A stretch of 64,000 nt of DNA from Escherichia coli (GTDB taxonomy: Bacteria; Pseudomonadota; Gammaproteobacteria; Enterobacterales; Enterobacteriaceae). Under the pieces are notes generated by a model, which made no database searches, was not told the DNA's origin, and saw only the letters and a list, made by a program, of their open reading frames with translations. The translations under genes were made by a program, and so were the position numbers. The DNA lies in assembly GCF_003790525.1 (NCBI RefSeq), contig NZ_CP033634.1; one strand, given 5' to 3'. This document shows positions 1 to 54,873 of the stretch, piece by piece; position 1 is the stretch's first letter; every line of letters starts with the position of its first letter.

Positions 1-1320
1 CCCAACCGCAGCTACAGCAAACTGGTGGACACACTGCTTTCCATCAAAATTGAAAAACTGCGTACCTTCCTGCGTAATTCACCGGCAGCCAACCTGGTGG
101 AAGAGAAAATTGAGAAAACGGCGATTTCCATCCGTGCTGTGCTGACCAACTACGTGAAAGCCATCCGTTACCTGCAGGGGATTGAGCATAACGGTGAGTC
201 TTTTACCATCCGTGACTGGATGCGTGGTGTCCGGGAAGATCAGAAAAACGGCTGGCTGTTTATCTCGTCGAATGCCGACACCCATGCCTCCCTGAAGCCG
301 GTGATCTCCATGTGGCTGTCCATTGCCATTCGTGGTCTGCTGGCAATGGGAGAAAACCGTAACCGTCGTGTGTGGTTTTTCTGTGACGAGTTACCCACGT
401 TACACAAACTGCCGGACCTGGTGGAGATCCTGCCGGAAGCCCGTAAGTTCGGTGGCTGTTATGTGTTTGGTATCCAGTCCTATGCCCAGCTGGAAGATAT
501 CTACGGTGAGAAAGCGGCGGCCACGCTGTTTGACGTCATGAACACCCGTGCTTTTTTCCGTTCCCCGAGCCATAAGATTGCAGAGTTCGCTGCCGGTGAG
601 ATTGGTGAGAAAGAGCACCTGAAAGCCAGCGAGCAGTATTCCTACGGTGCTGACCCGGTACGTGACGGGGTATCGACCGGTAAGGATATGGAGCGTCAGA
701 CACTGGTCAGTTATTCCGACATTCAGTCTCTGCCGGATCTGACCTGCTATGTCACTCTGCCCGGACCGTATCCGGCAGTAAAACTCTCCCTGAAATATCA
801 GGCACGACCGAAGGTCGCTCCGGAGTTTATTCCGCGTGACATCAACCCGGAAATGGAGAACCGTCTGAGTGCCGTACTTGCTGCAAGGGAAGCAGAAGGT
901 CGCCAGATGGCCAGCCTCTTCGAACCGGAGGTTGCCTCCGGAGAAGGCGTGACTCAGGCTGAACAGCCACAACAGCCACAACAGCCACAACAGCCACAAC
1001 AGCCACAACAGCCACAACAGCCACAACAGCCACAACAGCCAGTGTCTTCTGTCATGAATGATAAGAAGTCAGATGCAGGTGTGAGTGTTCCGGCAGGGGG
1101 GATCGAGCAGGAGCTGAAAATGAAACCGGAAGAAGAGATGGAACAGCAACTGCCACCCGGGATCAGTGAATCCGGTGAAGTGGTGGATATGGCCGCTTAT
1201 GAGGCATGGCAACAGGAAAATCATCCGGACATCCAGCAGCAGATGCAGCGTCGTGAAGAGGTGAACATTAATGTGCACCGGGAGCGCGGGGAGGATGTTG
1301 AGCCGGGAGATGATTTCTGA
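1..1320 (+). CDS. traD: Conjugative coupling protein TraD, C-terminal part (gene begins upstream of window)
   Basis: Open frame from nt 1 to TGA at 1318-1320; C-terminus has the QPQ repeat array and ...EDVEPGDDF tail typical of F-like TraD; stop overlaps the traI ATG. Confidence 0.93.
964..1041 (+). repeat. 9-bp tandem repeat (CAGCCACAA x8 plus partial unit) encoding the TraD C-terminal QPQ array
   Basis: Read directly from sequence. Confidence 0.9.
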
Positions 1321-4300
1321 TGTTGAGTTTTAGCGTTGTTAAATCGGCAGGCAGTGCCGGAAACTATTACACCGACAAGGATAATTACTATGTGCTGGGT
1401 AGCATGGGAGAACGCTGGGCCGGTCAGGGGGCTGAACAGCTTGGGCTGCAGGGCAGCGTCGATAAGGATGTTTTTACCCGTCTTCTGGAGGGCAGGCTGC
1501 CGGACGGGGCGGATTTAAGCCGCATGCAGGATGGCAGTAATAAGCATCGTCCCGGCTACGACCTGACCTTCTCCGCCCCCAAAAGTGTCTCCATGATGGC
1601 CATGCTCGGGGGGATAAACGTCTTATTGATGCACATAACCAGGCTGTGGATTTTGCTGTCCGTCAGGTGGAGGCGCTGGCTTCCACACGGGTGATGACGG
1701 ACGGACAGTCAGAAACGGTGCTGACCGGTAATCTGGTGATGGCACTGTTTAACCATGACACCAGTCGCGATCAGGACCCACAGTTACACACGCATGTGGT
1801 GGTGGCTAATGTCACGCAGCATAACGGCGAGTGGAAGACACTGAGCAGTGACAAAGTGGGGAAAACCGGATTTTCCGAGAACGTGCTCGCGAACCGGATT
1901 GCGTTCGGGAAAATATATCAGAGTGAGTTACGTCAGCGCGTTGAGGCGCTGGGTTATGAAACCGAAGTGGTCGGTAAGCACGGTATGTGGGAGATGCCGG
2001 GCGTACCGGTGGAGGCCTTTTCCGGACGCTCACAGGCTATCCGGGAGGCCGTCGGGGAAGATGCCTCGCTGAAATCCCGGGATGTGGCGGCACTGGATAC
2101 GCGAAAATCCAAACAGCACGTCGATCCGGAAATCAGAATGGCTGAATGGATGCAGACGCTGAAGGAAACCGGGTTCGACATCCGGGCATATCGTGACGCG
2201 GCGGATCAGCGTGCGGAGACCCGCACGCAGGCGCCCGGGGCTGTTTCACAGGAGGGGCCGGATGTGCAGCAGGCGGTGACACAGGCCATTGCCGGATTAA
2301 GTGAACGAAAAGTGCAGTTCACGTATACGGACGTGCTGGCCAGGACGGTCGGCATACTGCCGCCGGAAAATGGTGTGATTGAACGGGCACGCGCCGGTAT
2401 CGATGAGGCCATCAGCCGTGAGCAGCTTGTCCCCCTCGATCGTGAGAAGGGGCTGTTCACGTCCGGGATTCATGTGCTCGATGAGCTGTCAGTCCGGGCA
2501 CTCAGTCGTGACATCATGAAACAGAACCGGGTGACCGTACATCCGGAGAAAAGTGTCCCCCGGACGGCCGGTTACAGCGATGCCGTCAGTGTTCTGGCAC
2601 AGGATCGCCCGTCGCTGGCCATTGTGTCCGGGCAGGGCGGTGCAGCCGGGCAGCGTGAGCGGGTGGCTGAACTGGTCATGATGGCCCGGGAGCAGGGGCG
2701 GGAGGTGCAGATTATCGCTGCTGACCGTCGCTCGCAGATGAACCTGAAGCAGGATGAACGGCTGTCCGGTGAGCTGATAACCGGACGTCGTCAGCTGCAG
2801 GAGGGCATGGTCTTCACGCCGGGCAGTACCGTTATCGTTGACCAGGGCGAAAAACTCTCCCTGAAAGAGACGTTAACCCTGCTGGACGGTGCCGCACGTC
2901 ATAACGTACAGGTCCTGATAACCGACAGCGGGCAGCGAACCGGTACAGGCAGTGCGCTGATGGCCATGAAGGATGCCGGGGTGAACACGTATCGCTGGCA
3001 GGGCGGAGAACAGCGACCGGCCACCATCATCAGTGAACCGGACCGGAATGTCCGCTATGACCGGCTGGCCGGAGATTTTGCGGCCAGCGTGAAAGCCGGA
3101 GAAGAGAGCGTGGCACAGGTCAGCGGGGTACGGGAACAGGCCATACTGACACAGGCCATTCGCAGTGAGCTGAAAACACAGGGCGTGCTCGGACACCCGG
3201 AGGTGACCATGACCGCCCTGTCACCGGTCTGGCTGGACAGCCGGAGCCGTTATCTGCGGGATATGTACCGACCGGGGATGGTGATGGAGCAGTGGAACCC
3301 GGAGACACGCAGTCATGACCGCTATGTTATCGACCGGGTGACGGCGCAGAGTCACAGCCTGACCCTGCGGGATGCGCAGGGCGAAACGCAGGTGGTGCGT
3401 ATTTCCTCCCTGGACAGCAGCTGGTCGCTGTTCCGGCCGGAAAAAATGCCGGTGGCAGACGGCGAGCGACTGAGGGTGACAGGGAAAATTCCCGGACTCC
3501 GCGTCTCCGGCGGTGACCGCCTGCAGGTGGCATCCGTCAGTGAAGATGCGATGACGGTTGTTGTGCCGGGGCGGGCTGAACCGGCCACCCTGCCTGTGGC
3601 TGATTCACCGTTCACGGCACTGAAGCTGGAGAACGGCTGGGTGGAAACGCCCGGGCATTCCGTCAGCGACAGTGCGAAGGTTTTTGCCTCCGTCACACAG
3701 ATGGCAATGGACAACGCCACCCTGAACGGTCTGGCCCGCAGTGGTCGTGATGTCCGGCTGTATTCTTCACTGGATGAAACCCGTACTGCGGAAAAACTTG
3801 CCCGCCATCCCTCCTTTACGGTGGTTTCTGAGCAGATAAAGGCGCGTGCCGGTGAGACATTGCTGGAAACCGCTATCAGTCTGCAGAAAGCCGGGCTTCA
3901 CACGCCGGCACAGCAGGCTATTCATCTGGCCCTTCCTGTGCTGGAAAGTAAAAACCTGGCCTTCAGCATGGTGGACCTGCTGACAGAGGCGAAGTCGTTT
4001 GCTGCAGAAGGAACCAGTTTTACTGAACTGGGAGGGGAAATCAATGCGCAGATAAAACGCGGTGATTTACTGTATGTGGATGTGGCAAAAGGCTATGGCA
4101 CAGGCCTGCTGGTTTCCCGTGCGTCGTATGAGGCAGAAAAGAGCATTCTTCGCCATATTCTCGAAGGTAAGGAGGCGGTCACGCCGCTGATGGAGAGAGT
4201 ACCTGGCGAACTCATGGAGAAACTGACATCAGGACAGCGTGCCGCCACCCGCATGATACTGGAAACGTCCGACCGTTTCACGGTGGTGCAGGGCTATGCC

Positions 4301-6589
4301 GGTGTGGGTAAGACCACACAGTTCCGGGCGGTGATGTCAGCCGTGAACATGCTGCCGGAGAGTGAGCGTCCCCGTGTCGTTGGGCTGGGTCCCACGCACC
4401 GCGCGGTCGGGGAGATGCGCAGCGCCGGCGTGGATGCACAGACACTGGCGTCCTTTCTGCATGACACGCAGCTGCAGCAGCGCAGCGGAGAAACGCCGGA
4501 TTTCAGCAACACGCTGTTCCTGCTCGATGAGAGCTCAATGGTGGGCAATACCGACATGGCACGGGCATACGCCCTGATTGCGGCCGGTGGCGGTCGTGCT
4601 GTGGCCAGCGGTGACACGGACCAGCTGCAGGCCATCGCGCCCGGTCAGCCTTTCCGTCTCCAGCAGACGCGCAGTGCTGCCGATGTGGTCATCATGAAGG
4701 AGATTGTGCGTCAGACGCCGGAACTGCGGGAGGCGGTATACAGCCTGATTAACCGGGATGTGGAAAGGGCACTGTCCGGGCTTGAGAGTGTGAAACCGTC
4801 TCAGGTTCCCCGTCAGGAGGGCGCATGGGCACCGGAGCACTCCGTGACGGAGTTCAGTCACAGCCAGGAAGCGAAACTGGCAGAAGCGCAGCAGAAGGCG
4901 ATGCTGAAAGGCGAGGCTTTCCCGGATATCCCCATGACACTGTATGAAGCCATTGTCCGCGACTATACCGGCAGGACACCGGAAGCACGGGAGCAGACGC
5001 TGATTGTCACACACCTGAATGAGGACCGGCGCGTACTGAACAGCATGATTCATGATGCACGGGAAAAGGCCGGTGAGCTGGGCAAAGAGCAGGTCATGGT
5101 GCCTGTCCTGAACACAGCGAATATACGTGACGGAGAACTGCGTCGTCTCTCCACCTGGGAGAATAACCCGGATGCCCTTGCCCTGGTGGATAGTGTGTAT
5201 CACCGGATTGCCGGTATCAGCAAGGATGACGGGCTGATAACCCTGCAGGATGCGGAAGGTAACACGCGGCTGATTTCGCCCCGGGAGGCGGTGGCTGAAG
5301 GCGTCACACTGTACACCCCGGACACCATCCGGGTGGGAACCGGTGACCGGATGCGCTTCACGAAGAGTGACCGGGAGCGCGGTTATGTGGCCAACAGCGT
5401 CTGGACGGTGACAGCGGTTTCAGGTGACAGTGTCACGTTGTCGGACGGACAGCAGACCCGGGTGATTCGCCCCGGTCAGGAGCGGGCAGAGCAACATATT
5501 GACCTGGCTTATGCCATCACCGCCCACGGTGCGCAGGGGGCAAGTGAAACCTTTGCCATCGCGCTTGAAGGCACGGAAGGTAACCGGAAACTGATGGCAG
5601 GCTTTGAGTCAGCTTATGTAGCCCTGTCGCGTATGAAGCAGCATGTGCAGGTGTACACCGATAACCGTCAGGGCTGGACGGATGCCATCAACAATGCCGT
5701 ACAGAAAGGAACTGCCCACGATGTGTTTGAACCGAAACCGGACCGGGAGGTCATGAATGCAGAGCGGCTGTTCAGTACGGCGCGGGAGCTGCGGGACGTG
5801 GCGGCAGGCCGTGCCGTTCTTCGTCAGGCGGGACTTGCCGGGGGAGACAGTCCTGCACGGTTTATTGCTCCGGGACGTAAATATCCGCAACCGTATGTGG
5901 CACTGCCGGCTTTTGACCGTAACGGCAGGTCCGCCGGTATCTGGCTGAACCCGCTGACCACGGATGACGGAAACGGGCTGCGGGGATTCAGCGGTGAAGG
6001 CCGGGTGAAAGGCAGCGGGGATGCACAGTTTGTGGCCCTGCAGGGCAGCCGTAACGGAGAGAGCCTGCTGGCTGATAATATGCAGGATGGTGTCCGGATT
6101 GCCCGTGATAATCCTGACAGCGGTGTGGTGGTGAGAATCGCCGGTGAAGGCCGTCCGTGGAATCCCGGTGCCATCACCGGTGGTCGCGTGTGGGGGGATA
6201 TCCCGGACAACAGCGTCCAGCCGGGGGCCGGAAATGGTGAACCGGTTACAGCTGAAGTGCTGGCACAGCGGCAGGCTGAAGAGGCCATCCGCCGTGAAAC
6301 GGAACGTCGCGCAGATGAAATTGTCCGTAAAATGGCAGAGAACAAACCTGACCTGCCGGATGGCAGAACAGAGCAGGCTGTCAGGGAGATTGCCGGGCAG
6401 GAGCGTGACCGGGCTGCCATAACTGAACGGGAAGCCGCGCTGCCGGAGAGTGTGCTGCGTGAATCACAACGGGAGCGGGAAGCGGTCCGGGAGGTTGCCC
6501 GGGAAAATCTGCTGCAGGAGCGTCTGCAGCAGATGGAGCGGGATATGGTCCGTGACCTGCAGAAAGAGAAAACCCTGGGCGGAGACTGA
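1320..6589 (+). CDS. traI: TraI relaxase/helicase; frame interrupted by an apparent 1-nt loss in a G6 run near 1608-1613 (ORFs 1320-1694 and 1646-6589)
   Basis: N-terminus [35 protein letters not shown] and the 1647-aa downstream ORF both match recalled F TraI; the two ORFs are in different frames and together give full length. Confidence 0.85.
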
Positions 6590-40558: not shown

Positions 40559-41032
40559 GTGTCTTTCCCGTATGCCGGAGAATGGCTGACCGAAGACGAA
40601 ATCAGGGCTGTTCTTGATGCGGTGCACGATGCGGTACGAAGCATCTGTTACCAGGTGGCAGAAGATACGCGGCGTATCCGGGCGGCGCTGACCACCACCG
40701 GTCAGACGTTGCTGACCCGCCAGACGCGCCGCTTTCGCCTGGTCGTGAAGGAAAGCGATCATCCCTGCTGGCTCGATGAAGATGACGAAAACCTGCCCGT
40801 AGTGCTCGATGTCATCGTGAACCGGGGCGCACGTTTTTCGGCAGTGGAAATGTACCTGGTCAGCGATTGTATTGAGCATATCCTGTCCAGTGGGCTGGCC
40901 TGCGATGTGCTGCGTATACCGGATGAACCGCCCCGCCGCTGGTTTGACCGTGGTGTTCTGCGGGAGGTGGTCCGGGAAGCCCGGACCGAAATCCGCAGCA
41001 TGGCGGATGCCCTGGCAAAAATCCGTAAATGA
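40559..41032 (+). CDS. Hypothetical leading-region protein (GTG start)
   Basis: 157-aa ORF in the same orientation as its neighbours. Confidence 0.5.
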
Positions 41033-41448
41033 TGACACTGGCGGGGTAAATCCCCGCCTTTTTCCTGCCGGTCCCCGGACAGAGCACAAAGGAAGTCGCC
41101 GCCGGCTCCGCTTTACCCGGCCATGCGGGGCATGGCCTTGTGGATTTTCAGTTATGTGGCCTCAGCGTCGTGTGCGGGCTGTGCCGTGCCTCCATCGTAG
41201 CCGGGCTTCTGCGGGCGGGTTGCAAGGTAAGGTGAACCGCTGCGGTCACCCGGTCCCTCCTTCCCGTCTGCCGTGATTTTCCGGTCGTTCACCCGCTCAG
41301 ATTTCGCGGTCTCACCCTCCAACTCCCGCCAGCCGTGTGCGTCAGGCTGCGGCTTCCCTTGCGCCCTTGCAACCCTGCAGGCCCGGCAAAGATGGAGGCA
41401 CGGCACCGCCCGGTGTCGCGGAATATGTGAACAACGGAGGAAAACATC

Positions 41449-41874
41449 ATGCAATATGCGAAACCTGTCACTCTGAATGTTGAAGAGTGCGACCGTCTGT
41501 TTTTTCTGCCTTACCTGTTTGGCCAGGATTTTCTGTATGCCGAGGCATCTGTGTACGCGCTGGCGAAAAAAATGATGCCGGAATATGACGGCGGATTCTG
41601 GCACTTCATCCGCCTGCCGGACGGTGGCGGTTACATGATGCCGGATGGCGACCGTTTTCATCTGGTCAACGGTGAAAACTGGTTTGACCGTACGGTCAGC
41701 GCCGATGCCGCAGGCATCATTGTGACTTCCCTTGTGATTAACCGTCAGTTGTGGCTGTACCACGACAGCGGTGATGCAGGACTGACTCACCTGTACAGGA
41801 TGCGCGATGCGCAGTTGTGGAGCCACATCGAATTTCACCCCGAATGCAATGCGATTTACGCGGCACTGGACTGA
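41449..41874 (+). CDS. klcA: KlcA/ArdB-family antirestriction protein
   Basis: 141-aa product; size, leading-region position and recalled KlcA/ArdB family resemblance. Confidence 0.7.
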
Positions 41875-41920
41875 TTAACGGACGGGGCGGCAATGCCGCC
41901 CCTGTAAAGGAGACGAGAAC

Positions 41921-42343
41921 ATGTACTGTACTGTTAAAGAAATTATCCGCGAAGTGCTGGATACAGACGTGCCGGACAGTGAATGCGTTTTTGCCGTGGT
42001 GCTGACCCGTGGGGATGTGCGCCACATAGCTCAGGACTGGAGTCTGGCAGACGATGAGCTGGAAACCGTCATGCAGCGGCTGGACGATGCCTTTGAGCAT
42101 GGTGCGGATGTCAGCGTTGTTCACGACGTTGTTCGTGAACTGATGGAAGAAAAGCGCGCCAGCCGTCATGTGACAGTCCCGGCGATGATGCTGGAAAAAG
42201 TGATGGCGCTGGCAGGCAGTGAAATGAAGCGCCTGTATGCCGTCGGAAGTGAGAACGGGGGCGACGGTGACGCATTCGTCAGGGAGGAACGCGAAGCAAT
42301 GGACGTTGTGTTACAGGCGCTGGACGGGGAGACGATGTCATGA
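41921..42343 (+). CDS. Hypothetical leading-region protein
   Basis: 140-aa ORF with an AGGAGA-type ribosome-binding site. Confidence 0.55.
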   Translation: MYCTVKEIIREVLDTDVPDSECVFAVVLTRGDVRHIAQDWSLADDELETVMQRLDDAFEHGADVSVVHDVVRELMEEKRASRHVTVPAMMLEKVMALAGSEMKRLYAVGSENGGDGDAFVREEREAMDVVLQALDGETMS

Positions 42344-42531
42344 ATATCAGCACAGAAACCCGCGAAATTCTGCGTAATTACAGGGCCGTGATTAATGCGC
42401 GGCGTCGTGAAATGGGGCAGAAACCGCTCACCACCGCGCAGATTGTTGATGAAATCTGCGATTTTGTGGCGAATCAGCAGGCGGTTTTCCTAGGCGGTCA
42501 CTACATCTTACAGGGCAGCAGAAACAGGTGA
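42340..42531 (+). CDS. Hypothetical small protein
   Basis: 63-aa ORF overlapping the upstream stop. Confidence 0.4.
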   Translation: MNISTETREILRNYRAVINARRREMGQKPLTTAQIVDEICDFVANQQAVFLGGHYILQGSRNR

Positions 42532-42720
42532 TACAGGGGCAGGCGGTGGAGGCCGCCTGTCAGCCCGCGCGAAAACCCCTGGCAGGCTGACGCCTGCCGG
42601 AAGGGAAGCGGGCCACGCTGGCGCGTCGCCCGTTACCCTTCCCGTCTGTGATGTGTCTGACTCAGGAGTGTTTCTTTCTTATGTTATGGAACTGTTCCTG
42701 ATGTTGTTGTTCCTTTATCT

Positions 42721-43335
42721 GCTGCTCTGATTCTGACTACTGCAGTGTTGTTCTGTCTGCCGGGCGCACCTTCGGCTCCCGGCTGCCTGGCGGCATCCGG
42801 TCGTCAGGCCCGACTCCGACAGGCAGCTGCTGGCGCACCCGCCAGTCTCCGCCGAACCCGCTGGCGCGGTTTCGGGCTGTCGCTACGGTCCGATGCGTGA
42901 AAACCCCGGGCTTGCAGCGACCGTTCCGGTCGCGCCGCCTCTGTCGCGCCGTGGCCTGCGCTCCAGGCATCCCGGCAAAAAGACGCCGGGATGTAAGGCG
43001 CAACGCCGTTTCGCAAACCGCGCTTCACGTCGTTGCTGCGGGTCCCTGCTCATTGCCTGCCGGGTGCCACACACCCGTATGAGTCCCTGTCGCCGGGGGC
43101 ATAGACAGCCACAACCTGCCGCACTGACTGTCCAGGGTAAATGAACAGCCCACAAAATTTTTTACCCAGAACCCGGTAAAAAATTTTGCGTTCTGCCCAG
43201 GACAGGTGCGTCAGGCCGTGGCAGTGATGCCCCTTGCGGCGAAGGTTCTCAAACGGGTGAAGTTCATACCACAGGGAATACAGCAGCAGGTTCCCGCGAA
43301 ACGTCAAAACCGCGGCTCCCGAAACTCAACGGGTG
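42721..43335 (+). repeat. Frpo/ssi-like leading-region repeat, copy 1 (putative single-stranded-DNA promoter element)
   Basis: About 600 bp of GC-rich non-coding sequence recurring near-identically at 46052-46675 and, with an internal deletion, at 51454-52010; each copy precedes a plus-strand gene cluster. Confidence 0.6.
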
Positions 43336-43570
43336 ATGTTCTTTAAAAATCAGGATTTATTTCAGGCTCCGGCAATACGCATTTATGTGTTCTGTCAGTC
43401 ATCCGGCTGGCAGGTAATGAGAACGCAGGAACAGAAGGAGGAAAACACCGGAGAACGTCAGACGCAGATATGAAAAAAGCAGGTCAGGGACCTGCTTAAT
43501 CCACGCCGTAAGAATTGCGCAACCAATTTTGACGGCATTGTTAACCAATTTGTCATAAGGAGTTTCATTT

Positions 43571-43801
43571 ATGACGGTAAGTATTGTTTCACCTTCCGCA
43601 GCGGCTGTAAAGCCCCGCCGTCATCCCCGTTTCAGACGCGAAGACATCCCCGCGCCGGAAATTGACCCCGTGCTGAAAGCCTTCGGGCGACACATAGCCC
43701 GGAGTTTTCACCGGGGGCGTGGTGTACACATCCCCGCCATGAAAAACACGGCCTTCGGGCAGGTGCTCCGCACACTCGAACTGAAACGCGCTTTTAACTG
43801 A
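43571..43801 (+). CDS. Hypothetical small basic protein
   Basis: 76-aa ORF downstream of Frpo copy 1. Confidence 0.4.
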   Translation: MTVSIVSPSAAAVKPRRHPRFRREDIPAPEIDPVLKAFGRHIARSFHRGRGVHIPAMKNTAFGQVLRTLELKRAFN

Positions 43802-43852
43802 TGAGGTGAGCCGCCCCGCGAGGGGCGGCAACAGATGGAAGGAGAACATTTT

Positions 43853-45214
43853 ATGACATTAGCAGCAATCACCATGACCGCCCCGGAAGCCGCCAACCCT
43901 GTGCAGATGTACCGCGCGACCTACTCACCGGATGACAACAAACTGCGCCTGTATGCCGCGTCACGTCTTGACCCGGAGACGTATAAAAAAGTGCATGATG
44001 CCGGTTTTCGCTGGGCACCCAAACAGGCGCTGTTTGTCGCGCCAGCCTGGACACCGGGCCGGGAAGACGTGCTCCTCTCACTTGCCGGAGAGATTGAGGA
44101 TGAAGACAGCACGCTCGCTGAACGTCAGGAAGCACGGGCGGAGCGGTTTACCGGATACAGCGGAAAGCGGGCCAGTGAATCCGCACAGGCACTTGATGAA
44201 GTGGAAAGACTGGCCGCGATGATCCCGCCCGGTCAGCCCATTCTTGTGGGGCATCACAGCGAACGCCGCGCCCGTCGTGATGCGCAGCGTATTGAAAACG
44301 GCATGAAACGTGCCGTGATGCTCTTTGAGCGTGCGGAATACTGGGAGGAGCGGGCGCGGTCGGCACTGCTTCACGCGAAGTATAAAGAACGCCCGGACGT
44401 TCGCTGGCGTCGTATCAAAAAAATCGAAGCGGATTTGCGCAAGGCTGAAAAGACCATCGCGCAGTCGCAGAAATATCTGACGATGTGGCGGGCTGAATCG
44501 CTGGATCTGAATATGGCAAAACTCATCAGCAGTCATGACCATATCAGCGCCTGTTTCCCGCTGGACAGGTATCCGCGCCCGGCAGAAAAAAGCCAGTATG
44601 AAGGAAGTCGATCGTTATGGTCGGCCCTGGATGATGACATCATCACCACGGAGCAGGCCCGCGAAATTGCGATCCGCTGTCATGAACGGCAGATTCAGCA
44701 TCAACAACGCTGGGTTAACCACTATCATAACCGCCTGATCTATGAGCGTGCCATGCTGGACGAAAGCGGCGGCGTGGTTACCCGGACACAGGATTTTGAG
44801 CCGGGCGGACAGGTTTTCAGCCGGGGCGAGTGGCTGACCATCATCCGCGTGAACAAAAGCAACGGGGCGGTGAGTTCAGTCACAACGCCGAATTACAGTT
44901 TTCTCGGGTACAGCGGCACGATGAAAGTGACACCCGATCGCATCACGGACTACAAAGCACCATCGGCAGAAGAGGCTGCCGTCGCCAGTCAGGCCGCGAA
45001 GCGTCCGCCGGTAGTCAACTATCCGGGGGAAGGTTTCCGGGAAATGACAAAGGCGCAGTGGGCCGCCCTGCCCCGGGACTGTAAGGCCGTGCGCAGTGTG
45101 GCAGAGACAGAAGACCACGGGGCATACCGCTACCGCCGCACAATGGACAATAATTTCCGCCTGGTGAATGTGTATATCACTGACATGAAAATCACGGAAA
45201 TCCCACAGAAATAA
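43853..45214 (+). CDS. Large leading-region protein (recalled as DUF3560-like)
   Basis: 453 aa from the ATG at 43853 (GGAAGGAGA 7 nt upstream); the listed ORF starts 6 codons earlier. Confidence 0.65.
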   Translation: MTLAAITMTAPEAANPVQMYRATYSPDDNKLRLYAASRLDPETYKKVHDAGFRWAPKQALFVAPAWTPGREDVLLSLAGEIEDEDSTLAERQEARAERFTGYSGKRASESAQALDEVERLAAMIPPGQPILVGHHSERRARRDAQRIENGMKRAVMLFERAEYWEERARSALLHAKYKERPDVRWRRIKKIEADLRKAEKTIAQSQKYLTMWRAESLDLNMAKLISSHDHISACFPLDRYPRPAEKSQYEGSRSLWSALDDDIITTEQAREIAIRCHERQIQHQQRWVNHYHNRLIYERAMLDESGGVVTRTQDFEPGGQVFSRGEWLTIIRVNKSNGAVSSVTTPNYSFLGYSGTMKVTPDRITDYKAPSAEEAAVASQAAKRPPVVNYPGEGFREMTKAQWAALPRDCKAVRSVAETEDHGAYRYRRTMDNNFRLVNVYITDMKITEIPQK

Positions 45215-45260
45215 GGTATATCCCCCCGGGAAATCCCCGGGGGATGACGGAGATAATGAC

Positions 45261-45824
45261 ATGCACAGTCAGTTAAGAGAACGTATCCGGCTGATGCGCG
45301 CAAGGCTGGATAACGCCGCGCCGGTTGCTGAAATCCGGGCTGAATCTCAGCTTTTTGTGACTCCTGCCCCGGTCTGTGATCGCCTGGTGACGCTGGCGGA
45401 AATCAGCAACCGTGATCACATTCTGGAACCCTCTGCCGGCACCGGGGCCATACTGCTGGCGATTCGGGATACCGCGCCGGAGGCCATGTGTGATGCGGTG
45501 GAGATTAACAGCGGGCTGGTCCGGTATCTGCGGGAAAATTTTAACGGTGTCAGGGTACAGTGTGGCGACTTCATGGAATGGCAGCCGGTGCAGTATTACA
45601 GCCGGATCATTATGAATCCGCCGTTCAGTCACGGGCAGGATATCCGGCATATCCTGCGGGCTTTTTCCCTGTTGCGTCCGGGGGGCGTTCTGGTTGCCGT
45701 CTGTCTCAACGGGCCGCGCCAGCAGGAGAAGCTGTTACCGTTTTCTGACGTCCGCGAGGAGCTGCCGCGCGGCACGTTTGCTTATACCGATGTCCCGACG
45801 ATGATTATTCGTTTGCGTGCCTGA
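45261..45824 (+). CDS. Second orphan SAM-dependent methyltransferase (NPPF motif)
   Basis: ILEPSAGTGAIL (AdoMet-binding motif I) and IIMNPPFSHG (motif IV); 187 aa; no endonuclease partner. Confidence 0.7.
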   Translation: MHSQLRERIRLMRARLDNAAPVAEIRAESQLFVTPAPVCDRLVTLAEISNRDHILEPSAGTGAILLAIRDTAPEAMCDAVEINSGLVRYLRENFNGVRVQCGDFMEWQPVQYYSRIIMNPPFSHGQDIRHILRAFSLLRPGGVLVAVCLNGPRQQEKLLPFSDVREELPRGTFAYTDVPTMIIRLRA

Positions 45825-46006
45825 TGACACAGGGCTGGCGGGAGGATAAATGCCCGTCTGTCCGCGCCGGGAAAAGACCGCGCGCCGGTGGCGCTGAAAG
45901 GGGCCGCGCTCACGCGCCGCCCCTTTCATTACGCGGACGTTCTGATGGGGGCTTCTGTCTTTTCAGACCTGTCATTTGTCTGTTACTGATGATGTTGTTG
46001 TTCCTG

Positions 46007-46040
46007 CTACTGCTACTGCTACTGCTACTGCTACTGCTCT
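46007..46040 (+). repeat. Hexanucleotide tandem repeat (CTACTG)n immediately upstream of Frpo copy 2
   Basis: ctgctactgctactgctactgctactgctactgctc read directly; absent at the equivalent position of copies 1 and 3. Confidence 0.85.
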
Positions 46041-46051
46041 TCTTTTTCCTG

Positions 46052-46675
46052 CTGCTCTGATTCTGACTACTGCAGTGTTGTTCTGTCTGCCGGGCGCACC
46101 TTCGGCTCCCGGCTGCCTGGCGGCATCCGGTCGTCAGGCCCGACTCCGACAGGCAGCTGCTGGCGCACCTGCCAGTCTCCGCCGAACCCGCTGGCGCGGT
46201 TTCGGGCTGCCGCTACGGTCCGATGCGTGAAAACCCGGCTTGCAGCGACCGTTCCGGTCGCGCCGCCCCTGTCGCGCCGTGACCTGCGCTCCAGGCATCC
46301 CGGCAAAAAGACGCCGGGATGTAAGGCGCAACGCCGTTTCGCAAACCGCGCTTCACGTCGTTGCGGCGGGTCCCTGCCCGTTGTTGTGTCCGGTGCCATT
46401 CACCTGTTTAAGCCCCTGTCGCCGGGGGCTGATACAGCCACAACCTGCCGCACTGACTGTCCAGGGTAAATGAACAGCCCACAAAATTTTTTACCCAAAA
46501 CCCGGTAAAAAATTTTGCGTTCTGCCCAGGACAGGTGCGTCAGGCCGTGGCAGTGATGCCCCATGCGGCGAAGGTTCTCAAACAGGTGATGGTGAATACC
46601 GGAGGGAACAAAGAGCAGGTCCCCGCAAAACGTCAAAACCGCGGCTCCCGAAACTCAACAGATGATGGGGGCTGA
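46052..46675 (+). repeat. Frpo/ssi-like leading-region repeat, copy 2
   Basis: Near-identical to copy 1; lies directly upstream of ssb. Confidence 0.6.
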
Positions 46676-46700
46676 AAACATCAACAGAAGGAGACACATC

Positions 46701-47228
46701 ATGGCAGTTCGTGGCATTAACAAGGTCATTCTTGTCGGTCGTCTGGGAAAAGATCCGGAAGTCCGTTACATCCCAAACGGGGGCGCAGTGGCAAACCTGC
46801 AGGTGGCCACGTCAGAAAGCTGGCGCGACAAACAGACGGGGGAGATACGGGAGCAGACAGAATGGCATCGCGTGGTGCTGTTCGGCAAGCTCGCGGAAGT
46901 GGCTGGTGAGTATCTGCGCAAGGGCGCGCAGGTCTACATCGAAGGTCAGCTTCGCACCCGTAGCTGGGAGGATAACGGTATCACCCGTTACGTCACCGAA
47001 ATTCTTGTTAAGACCACGGGCACCATGCAGATGCTGGGACGTGCCGCAGGTACTCAGACTCAGCCGGAAGAGGCGCAACAGTTCAGCGGTCAGCCTCAGC
47101 CGGAATCACAGCCGGAACCGAAAAAAGGAGGCGCGAAAACGAAAGGCCGTGGACGTAAGGCCGCGCAGCCGGAGCCTCAGCAGCCGTCTGAACCCGCGTA
47201 TGACTTCGATGACGACATTCCGTTCTAA
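46701..47228 (+). CDS. ssb: Plasmid single-stranded DNA-binding protein
   Basis: [48 protein letters not shown]... OB-fold SSB with acidic DFDDDIPF tail; AAGGAG before the ATG. Confidence 0.92.
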
Positions 47229-47241
47229 CGAAAGACAGTGA

Positions 47242-47517
<276 letters not shown>

Positions 47518-47580
47518 GAGAGGTGCCGGACGGGAACGCGTCCGGCAGACATACAACCATCCCGGTCAAAGGAGAAATAT

Positions 47581-49539
47581 ATGTCAGTTACAGAGTCTAA
47601 GACAAAAACGGAGCGTAAATCCAGCCGTAAACCTGCAAAAACGCAGGAAACTGTCCTGTCTGCCCTGCTGGCGCAGACGGAGGAAGTGAGCGTGCCGCTG
47701 GCCTCGCTGATTAAATCACCGCTGAATGTGCGCACGGTGCCGTATTCTGCGGAGTCCGTCAGCGAACTGGCGGAGTCCATTAAGGGCGTCGGACTGCTGC
47801 AGAATCTGGTCGTGCATACCCTGCCAGGTGACCGTTACGGTGTCGCCGCAGGTGGTCGCCGACTGGCAGCACTCAACATGCTGGCAGAGCGTGGAATCAT
47901 TCCGGCTGACTGGCCTGTCCGCGTGAAAATTATTCCGCAGGAACTGGCGACGGCTGCATCGATGACCGAGAACGGTCATCGTCGGGATATGCACCCTGCC
48001 GAACAGATTGCCGGATTCCGCGCAATGGCGCAGGAAGGCAAAACACCTGCACAAATCGGTGATTTGCTGGGCTATTCACCCCGCCACGTTCAGCGAATGC
48101 TGAAACTGGCAGACCTTGCGCCTGTCATTCTCGATGCGCTGGCAGAGGACCGCATCACCACAGAGCACTGTCAGGCGCTGGCGCTGGAGAACGACACCGC
48201 GCGTCAGGTGCAGGTGTTTGAAGCCGCCTGTCAGTCAGGATGGGGCGGTAAACCGGAAGTGCAGACCATTCGTCGTCTGGTGACCGAAAGTGAAGTGGCG
48301 GTGGCGGGGAACAGTAAATTCCGCTTCGTGGGGGCTGATGCCTTCTCGCCAGATGAACTGCGCACCGATTTGTTCAGCGACGACGAGGGTGGCTATGTGG
48401 ACTGCGTGGCGCTCGATGCCGCCCTGCTGGAAAAACTCCAGGCTGTTGCTGAACACCTTCGGGAAGCCGAAGGCTGGGAATGGTGCGCCGGACGTATGGA
48501 GCCTGTCGGTTTCTGCCGTGAGGATGCCGGAACATACCGCAGTCTGCCGGAGCCGGAAGCGGTGCTGACGGAGGCGGAAGAAGAACGCCTGAACGAACTG
48601 ATGGCACGTTACGACGCGCTGGAAAATCAGTGTGAGGAATCCGACCTGCTGGAAGCAGAAATGAAGCTGATTGACTGCATGGCGAAGGTCAGGGCGTGGA
48701 CGCCGGAGATGCGTGCCGGAAGTGGCTTGGTGGTATCCTGGCGTTATGGAAACGTATGTGTCCAGCGTGGTGTGCAGTTGCGCAGTGAGGATGACGTGGC
48801 TGACGACGCTGGCCGCACGGAACAGGTGCAGGAGAAAGCCTCCGTGGAGGGAATCAGTCTGCCGCTGCTGACGAAAATGTCTTCCGAACGCACGCTGGCA
48901 GTCCAGGCGGCACTCATGCAGCAACCGGACAAATCCCTGGCACTGCTGGCATGGACGCTCTGCCTGAATGTGTTTGGCAGCGGAGCGTACAGTAAACCAG
49001 CACAAATCAGCCTGGAATGTGAACATTATTCGCTGACCAGCGATGCGCCATCGGGGAAGGAAGGTGCCGCATTCATGGCGCTGATGGCAGAAAAAGCCCG
49101 TCTTGCTGCCCTGTTGCCGGAGGGATGGGCACGGGACATGACGACGTTCCTGTCACTCAGTCAGGAGGTGCTGTTATCCCTGCTCAGTTTCTGCACCGCA
49201 TGCAGCCTTAACGGTGTCCAGACCCGTGAGTGTGGTCACACGTCACGCAGTCCGCTTGACTCGCTGGAAACCGCTATCGGATTCCACATGCGCGACTGGT
49301 GGCAGCCGACAAAAGCAAACTTCTTCGGACACCTGAAAAAGCCGCAGATTATCGCAGCCCTGAATGATGCCGGACTGTCCGGTGCCGCACGGGACGCGGA
49401 GAAGATGAAGAAAGGCGATGCGGCTGAACATGCAGAGTTCCACATGAAAGACAACCGCTGGGTGCCTGGCTGGATGTGTGCACCACGTCCACAGACGGAT
49501 GCCACTGAACGCACCGCTAACCTGGCTGATGCCGCCTGA
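47581..49539 (+). CDS. ParB-like nuclease-domain protein of the leading region
   Basis: 652 aa; N-terminal ParB/Srx-like motif (GLLQNLVVHTLPGDRYGVAAGGRRLAA). Confidence 0.8.
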   Translation: MSVTESKTKTERKSSRKPAKTQETVLSALLAQTEEVSVPLASLIKSPLNVRTVPYSAESVSELAESIKGVGLLQNLVVHTLPGDRYGVAAGGRRLAALNMLAERGIIPADWPVRVKIIPQELATAASMTENGHRRDMHPAEQIAGFRAMAQEGKTPAQIGDLLGYSPRHVQRMLKLADLAPVILDALAEDRITTEHCQALALENDTARQVQVFEAACQSGWGGKPEVQTIRRLVTESEVAVAGNSKFRFVGADAFSPDELRTDLFSDDEGGYVDCVALDAALLEKLQAVAEHLREAEGWEWCAGRMEPVGFCREDAGTYRSLPEPEAVLTEAEEERLNELMARYDALENQCEESDLLEAEMKLIDCMAKVRAWTPEMRAGSGLVVSWRYGNVCVQRGVQLRSEDDVADDAGRTEQVQEKASVEGISLPLLTKMSSERTLAVQAALMQQPDKSLALLAWTLCLNVFGSGAYSKPAQISLECEHYSLTSDAPSGKEGAAFMALMAEKARLAALLPEGWARDMTTFLSLSQEVLLSLLSFCTACSLNGVQTRECGHTSRSPLDSLETAIGFHMRDWWQPTKANFFGHLKKPQIIAALNDAGLSGAARDAEKMKKGDAAEHAEFHMKDNRWVPGWMCAPRPQTDATERTANLADAA

Positions 49540-49590
49540 TGAACAACCACACCGCCCCGCCGGAGACGGGGCGGCAGAGGGAGAAATACG

Positions 49591-50028
49591 ATGATGAATA
49601 CCGAACTGACACTGAATGCCCTGCAGTCCATGAATGCCCAGGAATATGAAGAAATCCGTGCTGCGGGAAGCGATATGCGCCGTAATCTCACTCACGAGGT
49701 GATGCGTGAAGTGGACGCACCGGCTAACTGGATGATGAATGGCGAGTATGGCAGCGAGTTCGGGGGCTTTTTCCCCGTCCAGGTTCGTTTCACGCCAGCC
49801 CACGAACGTTTCCACCTGGCATTATGTTCGCCGGGAGACGTCTCTCAGCTCTGGGTGCTGGTTCTGGTGAATGCCGGTGGTGAGCCGTTTGCGGTGGTTC
49901 AGGTGCAGCGGCGGTTTGCACCGGAAGCTGTCAGCCATTCACTGGCACTGGCGGCGTCACTGGATGCGCAGGGGTACAGCGTTAACGACATCATTCATAT
50001 CCTGATGGCGGAAGGAGGTCAGGCATGA
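49591..50028 (+). CDS. psiB: PsiB plasmid SOS-inhibition protein (alternative start 49594)
   Basis: ...[26 protein letters not shown]...[33 protein letters not shown]... near-identical to recalled F PsiB. Confidence 0.92.
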
Positions 50029-50744
50029 GCGCACGTTCACAGGCACTGGTTCCTCTCAGCACAGAGCAACAGGCCGCATGGCGGGCGGTGGCGGAGACCG
50101 AAAAACGCCGCCATCAGGGTAACACGCTGGCTGAATATCCGTATGCGGGGGCGTTTTTCCGCTGTCTGAACGGAAGCCGCAGGATTTCGCTGTCTGACCT
50201 GCGATTTTTCATGCCATCCCTGACCGCAGAAGAACTGCACGGCAGCCGTCTTCAGTGGCTGTATGCCATCGATGTGCTGATTGAAACACAGGGCGAGGTC
50301 TGCCTCCTTCCCCTTCCCGGTGATGCAGCAGAGCGCTTGTTCCCGTCGGTGCGGTTTCGTGTCAGGGAACGCAGTCGCCATAAATCCGCGCTGGTCATGC
50401 AGAAGTACAGCCGCCAGCAGGCGAGGGAGGCAGAGCAGAAAGCCCGTGCGTACCAGGCGCTGGTCGCTCAGGCTGAAATCGAACTGGCATTCCATTCGCC
50501 GGAAACAGTCGGAAGCTGGCATGCACGCTGGAGTGACCGGGTGGCAGAGCATGACCTGGAAACCCTGTTCTGGCAGTGGGGCGAGCGTTTTCCGTCACTG
50601 GCCGGAATGGAACGCTGGCAGTGGCAGGATATGCCGTTCTGGCAGGTTATTGCGGAAGCCAGTCTTGCAGCAAGAGAGGCCGGTCACGCTGTCCGTGAGA
50701 TGGAGCGGTGGATGGTGCCGAACAAACTCCGGGAGGCAGCGTGA
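50025..50744 (+). CDS. psiA: PsiA
   Basis: 239-aa product downstream of and overlapping psiB, as in F. Confidence 0.9.
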
Positions 50745-50924
50745 TGCGGCAACAATCACACGGATTTCCCGTGAACGGTCTGAATGAGCGGATTATTTTC
50801 AGGGAAAGTGAGTGTGGTCAGCGTGCAGGTATATGGGCTATGATGTGCCCGGCGCTTGAGGCTTTCTGCCTCATGACGTGAAGGTGGTTTGTTGCCGTGT
50901 TGTGTGGCAGAAAGAAGATAGCCC

Positions 50925-51000
50925 CGTAGTAAGTTAATTTTCATTAACCACCACGAGGCATCCCTATGTCTAGTCCACATCAGGATAGCCTCTTACCGCG
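50925..51000 (-). ncRNA. sok: Putative Sok antisense RNA (approximate)
   Basis: Position inferred from the hok/sok paradigm (antisense across the mok start region). Confidence 0.35.
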
Positions 51001-51178
51001 CTTTGCGCAAGGAGAAGAAGGCCATGAAACTACCACGAAGTTCCCTTGTCTGGTGTGTGTTGATCGTGTGTCTCACACTGTTGATATTCACTTATCTGAC
51101 ACGAAAATCGCTGTGCGAGATTCGTTACAGAGACGGACACAGGGAGGTGGCGGCTTTCATGGCTTACGAATCCGGTAA
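50966..51178 (+). CDS. mok: Mok-like overlapping reading frame of the hok/sok locus
   Basis: 70-codon frame overlapping hok in the +2 register, as described for R1 hok/sok. Confidence 0.55.
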
Positions 51179-51182
51179 GTAG
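51024..51182 (+). CDS. hok: Hok host-killing toxin (type I toxin-antitoxin; flmA-like)
   Basis: [52 protein letters not shown], 52 aa, matching recalled Hok. Confidence 0.9.
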
Positions 51183-51453
51183 CAACCTGGAGGCGGGCGC
51201 AGGCCCGCCTTTTCAGGACTGATGCTGGTCTGACTACTGAAGCGCCTTTATAAAGGGGCTGCTGGTTCGCCGGTAGCCCCTTTCTCCTTGCTGATGTTGT
51301 ACGGGCATGAACAACCTGACTTCAGGAAGGTCGTTTCCCTTCAGGAACGGGGATGAACGCGCGCCTGCGGCGCCCGTTCTTTTCCCCCGCCTTCTCTGGT
51401 TACGGCCTGTCAGAAATCACATCACCTTCCCTGTGATTATTCTCTTTTTCTTC

Positions 51454-52010
51454 CTGCTCTGATTCTGACTACTGCAGTGTTGTCCTGTCTGCTGGCGCAC
51501 CTGCCAGTCTCCGCCGAACCCGCTGGCGCGGTTTCGGGCTGTCGCTACGGTCCGATGCGTGAAAACCCCGGGCTTGCAGCGACCGTTCCGGTCGCGCCGC
51601 CTCTGTCGCGCCGTGGCCTGCGCTCCTGGCATCCCGGCAAAAAGACGCCGGGATGTAAGGCGCAACGCCGTTTCGCAAACCGCGCTTCACGTCGTTGCTG
51701 CGGGTCCCTGCCCGTTGTTGTGTCCGGTGCCATTCACCTGTTTAAGCCCCTGTCGCCGGGGGCTGATACAGCCACAACCTGCCGCACTGACTGTCCAGGG
51801 TAAATGAACAGCCCACAAAATTTTTTACCCAAAACCCGGTAAAAAATTTTGCGTTCTGCCCAGGACAGGTGCGTCAGGCCGTGGCAGTGATGCCCCTTGC
51901 GGCGAAGGTTCTCAAACAGGTGATGGTGAATACCGGAGGGAACAAAGAGCAGGTCCCCGCAAAACGTCAAAACCGCGGCTCCCGAAACTCAACAGATGAT
52001 GGGGGCTGAA
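51454..52010 (+). repeat. Frpo/ssi-like leading-region repeat, copy 3 (about 70-bp internal deletion relative to copies 1 and 2)
   Basis: Same start (ctgctctgattctgactactgcagtgttg) and end (cgtcaaaaccgcggctcccgaaactcaac) as the other copies. Confidence 0.6.
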
Positions 52011-52438
52011 AACCAGAGAGAGGAGAAAGCTGGATGAGTACCCGAAATATCCACGTTAACACCGCGTCGTACACGATTCTTGTTGCCGGGAGGGAAAAAA
52101 CACCGGGGAAGAGTGGGACGTCCTGGAATTCAGCAGCCTGACTGAGCTGAAAAAATATCGCAAAAGCCACCCGGAAAAGATGGCCTTCAGCTATAGCTAC
52201 GCGCTCAGCCGGGGTGTGGATACGCAGTTCCGCCATATCAACATTGCGGAAGCCGATCACTTCAAACAGTTCCTGCGTCAGATTAAGCGTGCCGGCCTCG
52301 ATATCCGGGCGATCTGCTGACCGGATGTGATGAATATCCCTCCTGATTGTTGCAATCTTGTTAATGGAGATCGGGAGAGATGATATTAAGCGGAAAAATT
52401 TTTTATTAAATTTATTCTTTCATAAAGGAGTAGCTGTT

Positions 52439-53260
52439 ATGCGATTAGCTTCCCGTTTTGGTCGGTATAATTCCATCCGTCGTGAACGTCCTTTAACGGA
52501 TGATGAATTAATGCAGTTCGTGCCTTCGGTATTTTCCGGTGATAAACATGAGTCCCGGAGTGAACGTTATACGTATATTCCAACAATCAATATCATCAAT
52601 AAGTTACGTGATGAAGGTTTCCAGCCATTCTTTGCCTGTCAGAGTCGGGTTCGTGATTTGGGACGCCGCGAATACAGTAAACATATGTTACGTCTTCGCA
52701 GGGAAGGGCATATTAACGGGCAGGAAGTTCCTGAAATTATCCTGCTTAATTCACATGATGGTTCATCCAGTTATCAGATGATCCCCGGAATTTTTCGTTT
52801 TGTCTGCACAAATGGCCTGGTGTGCGGAAATAATTTTGGCGAAATCCGTGTTCCACATAAAGGTGATATTGTCGGGCAGGTTATCGAGGGAGCGTATGAA
52901 GTGCTCGGTGTCTTTGATAAGGTCACTGATAATATGGAGGCGATGAAAGAAATTCATCTTAACAGTGACGAGCAACATTTATTTGGCAGAGCTGCACTGA
53001 TGGTCAGGTATGAAGATGAAAATAAAACGCCAGTGACACCTGAACAGATAATTACTCCCCGTCGTCGGGAAGATAAACAGAACGATCTCTGGACAACCTG
53101 GCAGCGGGTTCAGGAGAATATGATAAAAGGTGGATTATCGGGGCGAAGTGCCTCCGGGAAAAATACCAGGACAAGAGCCATTACAGGTATTGATGGTGAT
53201 ATAAGAATCAACAAGGCGTTATGGGTGATTGCCGAACAGTTCAGAAAGTGGAAGTCATGA
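52439..53260 (+). CDS. DUF932-like leading-region protein
   Basis: 273 aa from the ATG at 52439 (AAGGAG upstream), MRLASRFGRYNSIRRERPLTDDELMQF...; the gene nearest oriT on the leading side. Confidence 0.7.
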   Translation: MRLASRFGRYNSIRRERPLTDDELMQFVPSVFSGDKHESRSERYTYIPTINIINKLRDEGFQPFFACQSRVRDLGRREYSKHMLRLRREGHINGQEVPEIILLNSHDGSSSYQMIPGIFRFVCTNGLVCGNNFGEIRVPHKGDIVGQVIEGAYEVLGVFDKVTDNMEAMKEIHLNSDEQHLFGRAALMVRYEDENKTPVTPEQIITPRRREDKQNDLWTTWQRVQENMIKGGLSGRSASGKNTRTRAITGIDGDIRINKALWVIAEQFRKWKS

Positions 53261-53556
53261 TAATATAAGTAAAGCCCCGAAAAAATTTTCGGGGCTTTAC
53301 TTATATTATCATTTTTCGGCATTGCTGTGTCGTCTGATATACCTCAATTTCATCGACCGGCTTTCCGGTTGTCTGTAAATATTGTGCCCGCGAAAAATGG
53401 TCTGGCAGGAGGCTGCGCAGTTACCGGGTATATATAAGATGGGTTCCCGCTTCGCGGGGCTTCGGCCAGTCAGTATTGTCACTCATATGATATTTTTGTG
53501 TGTGGCCTTCCATGCCGCTTTTGCGGCATAACCGGTATCTGACAATGTCTGTAAGA

Positions 53557-54066
53557 TTAATTGTTCTGCACGCTGTTAATTTCCGGAAGTGATTTCTTCG
53601 TGGCCGGAAGCCGGATACCTTTACTGCTTTTTATCCCGGTATAAATCCGGTAAACCTCTGATGCGTAGGCAAGACGTCTCTGGTTCTGGCGTTCGGATTT
53701 CCTGAATCCTGCATTGTATGCACCAACGGCCTCCCAGGTGACGCCCCATTTTTTAAATGCTATTGCCAGATAATAAGCACCGGTATAAATGTTCATGCAG
53801 GGATCTGTTGTCAGATGTTCTGGCTTAATTCCGTAGCGGGCCAGTTCGTTAAAATGCTGGGAATCTACCTGCATCAGTCCGCTGCCATATCCCGTTACCG
53901 GATTAATACCGATGGCATTAACCCGGTAACGGGATTCTTTCCATGATATTGCTCTCAGTAAATCAGGATCTATTTTGTAATCCCGGCCTGCAAGATCAAA
54001 GCAATCAGTGGCATGGCAGATCTCATTTATAAACATCAGGCAGATGGCTAACATCCATTTTTTCAT
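53557..54066 (-). CDS. Lytic transglycosylase (gene X / orf169-like)
   Basis: 169 aa from [10 protein letters not shown]...; signal peptide then lysozyme-like transglycosylase motifs ([24 protein letters not shown]). Confidence 0.85.
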
Positions 54067-54099
54067 TTTTCCACCTCTGGTGACTTTATCCGTAAATAA

Positions 54100-54470
54100 T
54101 TTAACCCACTCCACAAAAAGGCTCAACAGGTTGGTGGTTCTCACCACCAAAAGCACCACACACTACGCAAAAACAAGTTTTTGCTGATTTGCCACTTGAA
54201 TCATTAACTTATGTTTTAAATAATGTATTTTAATTTATTTTACATTATAAAAAGGATTCATTGGTGAATCGCATATGATTCACCAATGAATTTAACACAA
54301 CTCATAGATGAATCAGTAATAATAAAACAACGAGTTAAAGCGAATTGACTCTAGATTCAATTCGTGATGTGATTTGCTGCATGAATCGTAATTTTCGTAA
54401 CTTGCGTCACGATTCGATTCATCGATGAATTGTCATTTTTTTATATGTGAAATAAATTTGATGCGATAAG
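54100..54470. other. oriT region; nic predicted on the minus strand near 54157/54158
   Basis: Inverted repeat TTGGTGGTTCTCACCACCAA (54131-54150) followed by AAGCACCACACACTACGCAAAAAC, resembling the recalled F/R100 nic region; AT-rich tract with repeated motifs before traM. Confidence 0.7.
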
Positions 54471-54489: not shown

Positions 54490-54873
54490 ATGGCGAAAGT
54501 GCAGGCTTATGTCAGTGACGAAATTGTCTATAAAATAAATAAAATTGTGGAAAGAAGACGTGCAGAAGGAGCTAAAAGTACAGATGTAAGTTTCTCAAGC
54601 ATATCCACTATGCTTCTCGAATTAGGGCTTCGTGTATATGAGGCTCAGATGGAGCGTAAAGAGTCAGCGTTCAATCAGGCTGAGTTTAATAAGGTGCTTC
54701 TTGAATGTGCGGTAAAAACACAGTCAACAGTTGCTAAGATTTTAGGTATTGAGTCACTAAGCCCTCATGTTTCCGGGAATCCAAAGTTTGAATATGCGAA
54801 TATGGTCGAAGATATCAGGGAGAAGGTGTCATCTGAGATGGAGAGGTTCTTTCCAGAAAATGATGAGGATTAA
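54490..54873 (+). CDS. traM: TraM
   Basis: MAKVQAYVSDEIVYKINKIVERRRAEGAKSTDVSFSSISTMLLELGLRVYEAQ..., 127 aa. Confidence 0.9.
   Translation: MAKVQAYVSDEIVYKINKIVERRRAEGAKSTDVSFSSISTMLLELGLRVYEAQMERKESAFNQAEFNKVLLECAVKTQSTVAKILGIESLSPHVSGNPKFEYANMVEDIREKVSSEMERFFPENDED

Follow-up and report, generated by a model that had tools for sequence, protein, structure and literature searches.

The hexanucleotide array at positions 46004-46038 of the analysed DNA (the window, a 64,000-nucleotide stretch of Escherichia coli contig NZ_CP033634.1) is orthologous to VNTR-37 (O157-37), an already known typing locus of E. coli O157:H7. It is very probably a non-coding, slippage-prone and most likely neutral VNTR, which lies in a T-rich spacer at a mosaic junction. 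The array is placed between a hairpin that follows a methyltransferase gene and a unit of about 650 bp with a predicted Frpo2-type promoter for ssb-psiB. The features of the locus are as follows.

43571-43801, plus strand: orf76, the first gene of the orf76-DUF3560-MTase block
43835-45214, plus strand: DUF3560 gene
45261-45824, plus strand: class I SAM-dependent methyltransferase of 187 aa (Pfam MTS/Methyltransf_25; annotation of relatives)
45824-46060, plus strand: 78-aa ORF, annotated as a 'hypothetical protein' in relatives and reading poly-Leu across the array; judged spurious
45896-45927, plus strand: GC-rich hairpin GAAAGGGGCCGCGC-TCAC-GCGCCGCCCCTTTC after the methyltransferase gene (fold; conserved in copies 1-3)
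45950-46095, plus strand: T-rich, A-poor low-complexity spacer enclosing the array (sequence; period-18 row of Tandem Repeats Finder at 46004-46073; centroid fold)
46004-46038, no strand: the array, (CTGCTA)x5 + CTGCT (Tandem Repeats Finder, sequence, shuffles, and published primers bracketing the orthologue in pO157)
46039-46682, plus strand: Frpo copy 2, a Frpo2-type (class 1) single-strand promoter module (repeat search; alignment)
46316-46654, minus strand: long imperfect hairpin, the Frpo structure proper (DNA fold)
46701-47228, plus strand: ssb of the plasmid, first in the series of genes that the Frpo2-type module drives (ORFs; annotations)

The array is real and beyond chance. Tandem Repeats Finder reports a perfect repeat with a period of 6, 5.8 copies, 100% matches and the consensus CTGCTA. 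An 18-mer composed of three array units has a single site in the whole 64-kb window, and 100 dinucleotide-preserving shuffles yielded 0.00 matches. In the CTACTG register, five units are found at 46007-46036, followed by CT. The original prediction of about six CTACTG units at 46007-46040 was therefore correct regarding the repeat itself, but there are five such units and the end was set 1-2 bases too far. Repeat search and alignment revealed three copies of the Frpo-like repeat of about 650 bp, at about 42691-43353, 46021-46682 and 51489-52016. Within the window, the array is present solely at copy 2, as had been stated; the homologous T-rich tract of copy 1 (…CTGATGTTGTTGTTCCTTTATCTGCTGCTCTGA…) is free of hexamer repeats. 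The restriction to copy 2 is no general rule, since the array stands ahead of two Frpo modules in the metagenome contigs L026, L072 and L091.

The window harbors additional tandem repeats. A perfect 9-nt array at 962-1041 (AACAGCCAC x 8.9) reads Gln-Gln-Pro repeats in frame, and is presumably akin to the variable QQP repeat that F-type TraD carries close to its C-terminus. Arrays of the 8-bp unit GATAACAA are located at 28660-28711 (x4.4 and two inverted copies) and 29772-29826 (x6.9). They flank a minus-strand two-gene cassette, the first product of which starts with MIIVLGSQKGGVGKST (deviant Walker A, ParA-like), and resemble the centromere repeats found at partition loci. For IncI1 plasmids, a difference in the length of an '8 bp tandem repeat' is listed as well (PMC3817090).

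The array lies in the leading region of a conjugative, F-like plasmid. The methyltransferase gene is the last of the orf76-DUF3560-MTase block and lies upstream of the array, and ssb is followed in order by DUF905, a ParB-like gene (47581-49539), psiB (49591-50028) and psiA. Homologues of F genes were identified further downstream, comprising a DUF932 gene at 52439-53260, an SLT gene at 53557-54117 (minus strand) and traM at 54490-54873. Their positions place oriT near 54.2-54.5 kb and thereby identify the transferred strand as the minus strand of the window, which is the template for the leading-region genes from orf76 to psiA. Comparison with the F sequence indicates that copy 2 corresponds to Frpo2, which sits upstream of ssb in F, and copy 3 to Frpo1 (PMC9849209). 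The homology of copy 2 with copies 1 and 3 begins directly after the array. The hairpin at 45896-45927 is terminator-like but lacks a long T tail, and a terminator scan of 45600-46800 did not call it. The spacer at 45950-46095 exhibits a 3-nt periodicity with CTG, TTG, TTC and ATG units; on the transferred strand, it is rich in purines, and most of it is predicted to be unpaired. An Rfam scan of 41000-54000 detected no family at the array. Elsewhere in this range, two families scored above the gathering threshold: AS-pc01, an antisense RNA first described on plasmid pHK01, at 43474-43576 (minus strand) just downstream of Frpo copy 1, and the sok antitoxin RNA at 50850-51026 (plus strand) after psiA.

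Repeat number among related plasmids, the comparison that the original prediction had proposed, is far from invariant: 131 public sequences that share the left flank and have a complete array (fetched plasmids and metagenome loci) carry 1-14 units. Arrays of 1, 2, 3, 4, 5, 6 and 7 units occur in 14, 19, 16, 15, 20, 18 and 16 sequences, respectively, followed by a tail of 8 (three sequences), 9 (five), 12 (three), 13 (one) and 14 units (one). This distribution is nearly flat and has no preferred class. The commonest flank haplotypes each cover nearly the whole range, and single haplotypes span 1-14 units. The metagenome contigs were scanned for the exact pattern with the left flank, which provided 120 loci. 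Short-read metagenome assemblies could mis-size some of these arrays, but finished plasmids give the same range, with 1, 3, 5, 5, 5, 8, 9, 12 and 14 units in nine of the ten complete plasmids fetched and an interrupted array in the remaining one. In a BLAST search of 45880-46160 against plasmids, the full-length matches measured 254-332 bp versus 281 bp in the window. Full-length matches in complete E. coli genomes measured 194-242 bp versus 221 bp in the window, and the differences are all multiples of 3.

The array changes by whole units on otherwise identical backgrounds, as in a slippage-driven VNTR, and does so faster than point substitutions accumulate. Unit number differs in eight of nine pairs of sequences with no more than 3 mismatches over 1,400 nt of flanks, and identical flanks of 1.4 kb carry 7, 8 and 9 units in one case and 12 and 14 in another. 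The nearest plasmid, pGZM7d (NZ_CP129283.1), is 99.8% identical to the window over 21.5 kb. In the 4.3 kb around the array, the two show 0 substitutions and a single 24-nt gap, which corresponds to 9 units in pGZM7d and 5 in the window. Together with the mutations observed on passage in the literature, described below, these results bear out the claim that the repeat is slippage-prone.

Among 5,426 complete E. coli genomes, 2,732 carry the locus; of its 3,333 places in them, 3,307 are on plasmids. The locus is also present in plasmids of Klebsiella, Salmonella and Shigella. In the species-representative genome set, the single match is contig L131 (CAAGJQ010000034.1) of an 'uncultured Oscillibacter' MAG. 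This contig is E. coli-plasmid-like, and the enterobacterial plasmid locus in the Oscillibacter MAG is probably a binning contaminant. Many metagenome contigs (L011-L130) end 100-200 nt past the array. The multi-copy Frpo repeat seems to be where short-read assemblies break, which would leave leading regions systematically fragmented in metagenomes.

Since pO157-type plasmids were among the matches, the MLVA literature on O157:H7 was checked. The names VNTR-37 and O157-37 reportedly go with Keys et al. 2005 and the scheme of Hyytia-Trees et al. 2006. The VNTR-37 primers printed in PMC3321953 match the O157:H7 plasmid L134 and Sakai pO157, our reference for the pO157 comparison, with 0 mismatches and bracket the array. 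The amplicon in pO157 is 184 bp long and contains 7 units, ATGCTA followed by 6 x CTGCTA. This array occupies positions 46467-46508 of the Sakai pO157 record, between pO157p47 (a methyltransferase homologue) and ssb. VNTR-37 was described as a 6-bp repeat on pO157 'inside ORF L7083'; among 202 O157 isolates, it showed 11 alleles, from 3 to 17 repeats long, and its diversity index was 0.82 (PMC3321953). During serial passage, O157-37 underwent two mutations, one single-unit insertion and one multi-unit deletion, at a combined rate of 8.5e-5 per generation (PMC3777172). In the window, the forward primer site is located at 45916-45942 with 2 mismatches and overlaps the hairpin at 45896-45927, while no reverse primer site is present within 8 mismatches. 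The reverse site is missing because the segment of about 170 nt downstream of the array is an alternative allele, and the standard assay would therefore score a null allele. VNTR-36/Vhec7 of pO157 was ruled out as the identity of the array by its 7-bp unit. A full-text literature search found the repeat sequence itself in no paper, and the array is unmentioned in the Frpo and leading-region papers searched.

A coding role was considered, in which the array specifies a poly-Leu tail of variable length on a small hydrophobic protein, or the poly-Ser stretch of the minus-strand ORF L7083/pO157p48; the poly-Leu protein would be translationally coupled to the methyltransferase through the TGATG overlap at 45822-45826. 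PGAP and older annotations indeed call ORFs across the array, the hexamer unit leaves all frames open, and the Leu frame reaches its stop 24 nt past the array in 91 of 103 relatives. The frames chosen, however, differ between records. Besides the poly-Leu ORF, an overlapping 84-aa ORF reads Ala-Thr, and minus-strand poly-Ser ORFs are annotated in pO157 and pMS20675C, which amounts to three different frames or strands across the same array. The two plus-strand ORFs match no Pfam or NCBIfam family. Among the 103 relatives, the Leu frame has its first in-frame ATG at widely differing distances, 12 to 327 nt, upstream of the array. In the window, the shared ATG(ATG)TTG has no Shine-Dalgarno sequence ahead of it. 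Moreover, the poly-Leu ORF runs through the GC-rich hairpin, indels of 1-2 nt break its frame in L009, L036 and L081, and in the window, the pO157 minus-strand ORF is already closed ahead of the array. A coding role is thus extremely unlikely, and the ORFs across the array were judged to be annotation artefacts of stop-poor, low-complexity DNA. The 'hypothetical proteins' annotated there, namely L7083/pO157p48 and several RefSeq WP_ entries, probably do not represent genes. A regulatory role was also considered, in which the array length alters the output of the Frpo2 single-strand promoter or the read-through from upstream, resulting in graded or switchable ssb-psiB expression, like the repeats upstream of promoters in some pathogens. 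The array is situated upstream of the only ssb-psiB promoter module, and its length is hypervariable, as in contingency loci. The predicted DNA fold points the other way. For the minus strand of an 821-nt stretch, the MFE is -225.9 kcal/mol (z = -11.2), and the hairpin forms at 46316-46654, with the inverted repeat CAAAATTTTTTACC/GGTAAAAAATTTTG at its apex near 46495. The array directly adjoins the repeated unit of about 650 bp on its 5' side, and in this sense is immediately upstream of Frpo as originally described. The base of the hairpin, however, is about 280 nt away, and the array falls outside this structure and is unpaired in the predicted centroid structure of the transferred strand. 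When the array was rebuilt in silico with n=0-20, the mean unpaired probability of the hairpin region stayed at 0.24, and the array itself remained mostly unpaired (0.55-0.64). The MFE ranged from -225.1 to -227.2 kcal/mol for n=0-14 and was -229.6 kcal/mol at n=20. A promoter scan of 45600-46800 found no sigma-70-like site. Phase variation through a frame shift or a change in -35/-10 spacing does not fit a 6-nt unit with no credible ORF or promoter-like site. The length distribution is nearly flat, and all lengths of 1-14 units (17 in the literature) are tolerated. In F, deletion of all of Frpo2 abolished early ssb expression but left the transfer frequency unchanged (PMC9849209), which leaves little to select on. 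Modulation of the spacing or expression of the ssb-psi block, as suggested originally, is therefore unsupported, and we regard it as very unlikely.

A further reading, related to the original suggestion of a recombination scar, is that the array marks or promotes exchange between plasmid backbones and between Frpo copies. Many Klebsiella and E. coli plasmids match the BLAST query at 100% as far as query position 159 (46038 of the window), where the array ends, and diverge beyond it; in other plasmids, the match sets in only at query position 162, just past the array. Length-variable repeats, however, are places where local alignments tend to stop in any case. The segment of about 170 nt that separates the array from the conserved Frpo core (46040-46236 in the window) exists as two unrelated GC-rich alleles, CCGGGCGCACCTTCGG… in the window and CCGGGCGTCCCCCTGGCGGGG… in pO157, F and Klebsiella plasmids (compared with L004, L008 and L134). 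Window Frpo copy 3 lacks 70 nt of this segment. In metagenome contig L091 (oriented minus, 372-6257), a 3,334-bp block of Frpo, orf76, DUF3560, methyltransferase and array is duplicated in tandem, with 6 array units in each copy. The period of this duplication is the same as the distance between Frpo copies 1 and 2 of the window, which is what unequal crossing-over between Frpo repeats would give. L072 contains a second array together with a 3' remnant of the methyltransferase gene ahead of a third Frpo, and L026 has a second array behind a different gene. Frpo repeats are documented sites of recombination crossover (PMC3817090), and these long repeats alone can explain the exchanges; changes in unit number inside identical flanks need slippage only. 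The array thus stands at the junction of mosaic blocks, and Frpo-bounded blocks are duplicated, but the repeat itself is explained by slippage. It marks the edge of a shuffled module, and recombination as the explanation of the array is unlikely.

The preferred reading, a slippage-driven VNTR, accounts for the variation as follows. In slipped-strand mispairing, the most likely mechanism, the two strands would pair out of register by complete 6-nt units while DNA is being synthesized, leading to the gain or loss of units. Loops of 6 nt are poor substrates for MutS-dependent repair in E. coli. Opportunities for slippage may arise during vegetative replication, donor rolling-circle replacement synthesis and complementary-strand synthesis in the recipient. 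The resulting changes would only lengthen or shorten an unstructured spacer. Since the unit is a multiple of three, neither a credible gene nor the promoter hairpin includes the array, and arrays of 6 to about 100 nt all persist in nature, this variation is most likely selectively neutral.

The T-rich tract as a whole could be under compositional constraint. Upstream of 103 of 106 distinct Frpo-like modules, a 60-nt window with a T-over-A skew, (T-A)/60, of at least 0.37 was found (median 0.43), and the median value is reached by only 0.5% of random segments of the analysed window. This T-minus-A skew was used because a minimum-A-content statistic did not isolate the tract, the GC-rich module being A-poor as well. 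At the equivalent place before Frpo2/ssb, the F plasmid (L132, NC_002483.1; locus 5990-6060) carries a different pyrimidine repeat, (CCTCTTCTT)n, where the window has the CTGCTA array. Shorter versions of (CCTCTTCTT)n in the metagenome loci L034, L047 and L016 indicate that the F-type tract is also variable in length. Shared descent of homologous modules may explain the skew. We consider it improbable, on present grounds, that the T-rich, A-poor tract, which lies just 3' of nearly every Frpo-type module on the transferred strand, is a functional part of the promoter cassette. If it were, the tract might serve as an unstructured stretch letting the hairpin fold on its own, or as a landing zone for structure-opening proteins (a 3'-to-5' helicase like UvrD, SSB, the replisome). 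VNTR-37 and the (CCTCTTCTT)n of F would then be by-products of selection for composition rather than sequence.

VNTR-37 has been in use as a typing marker of E. coli O157 for about 20 years. Our analysis adds two modestly new points, namely its link to the Frpo module and its commonness, as it is present in half of the complete E. coli genomes. VNTR-37 is not specific to O157 but tracks a mobile leading-region module, which matters for reading MLVA results and plasmid comparisons. The MLVA literature is also linked in this way to that on single-strand promoters; in the papers searched, neither cites the other.

Several known systems resemble the array in part. The Frpo/ssi class 1 single-strand promoters are reportedly also associated with Masai and Arai 1997. 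The array adjoins a unit that bears a Frpo2-type hairpin of the kind found on F and IncI1 plasmids (PMC9849209; PMC12672017), whereas it lies outside the hairpin itself and is missing at the other two Frpo copies of the window. With contingency loci, which are based on promoter-proximal or frame-shifting repeats, it shares a hypermutable simple repeat 5' of an operon. In contrast to these loci, its unit is a multiple of 3 and causes no frameshift, the array is neither between nor beside promoter hexamers, and the promoter is a single-stranded-DNA hairpin about 280 nt away; to our knowledge, no on/off or graded phenotype is associated with it. Other VNTRs used for bacterial typing (for example O157-3, -9, -17, -19, -25 and -36) similarly consist of short, perfect units of 6-7 bp that change by whole units, and passage experiments put their mutation rates at around 1e-5 to 1e-3 per generation (PMC3777172). 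The window array differs from them in that it sits on plasmids and occurs across many Inc types and host species, and therefore reports plasmid ancestry rather than strain ancestry. The closest counterpart is VNTR-37 of pO157. Both arrays have the unit CTGCTA, reside on an F-like plasmid between a methyltransferase-like ORF and ssb, and vary by whole units between isolates, and the left flank at 45880-46038 is about 97% identical to pO157-type plasmids. The two differ in that pO157 has ATGCTA as its first unit and 7 units compared with 5.8 in the window, and that the window represents a non-O157 F-like plasmid whose nearest relative is pGZM7d.
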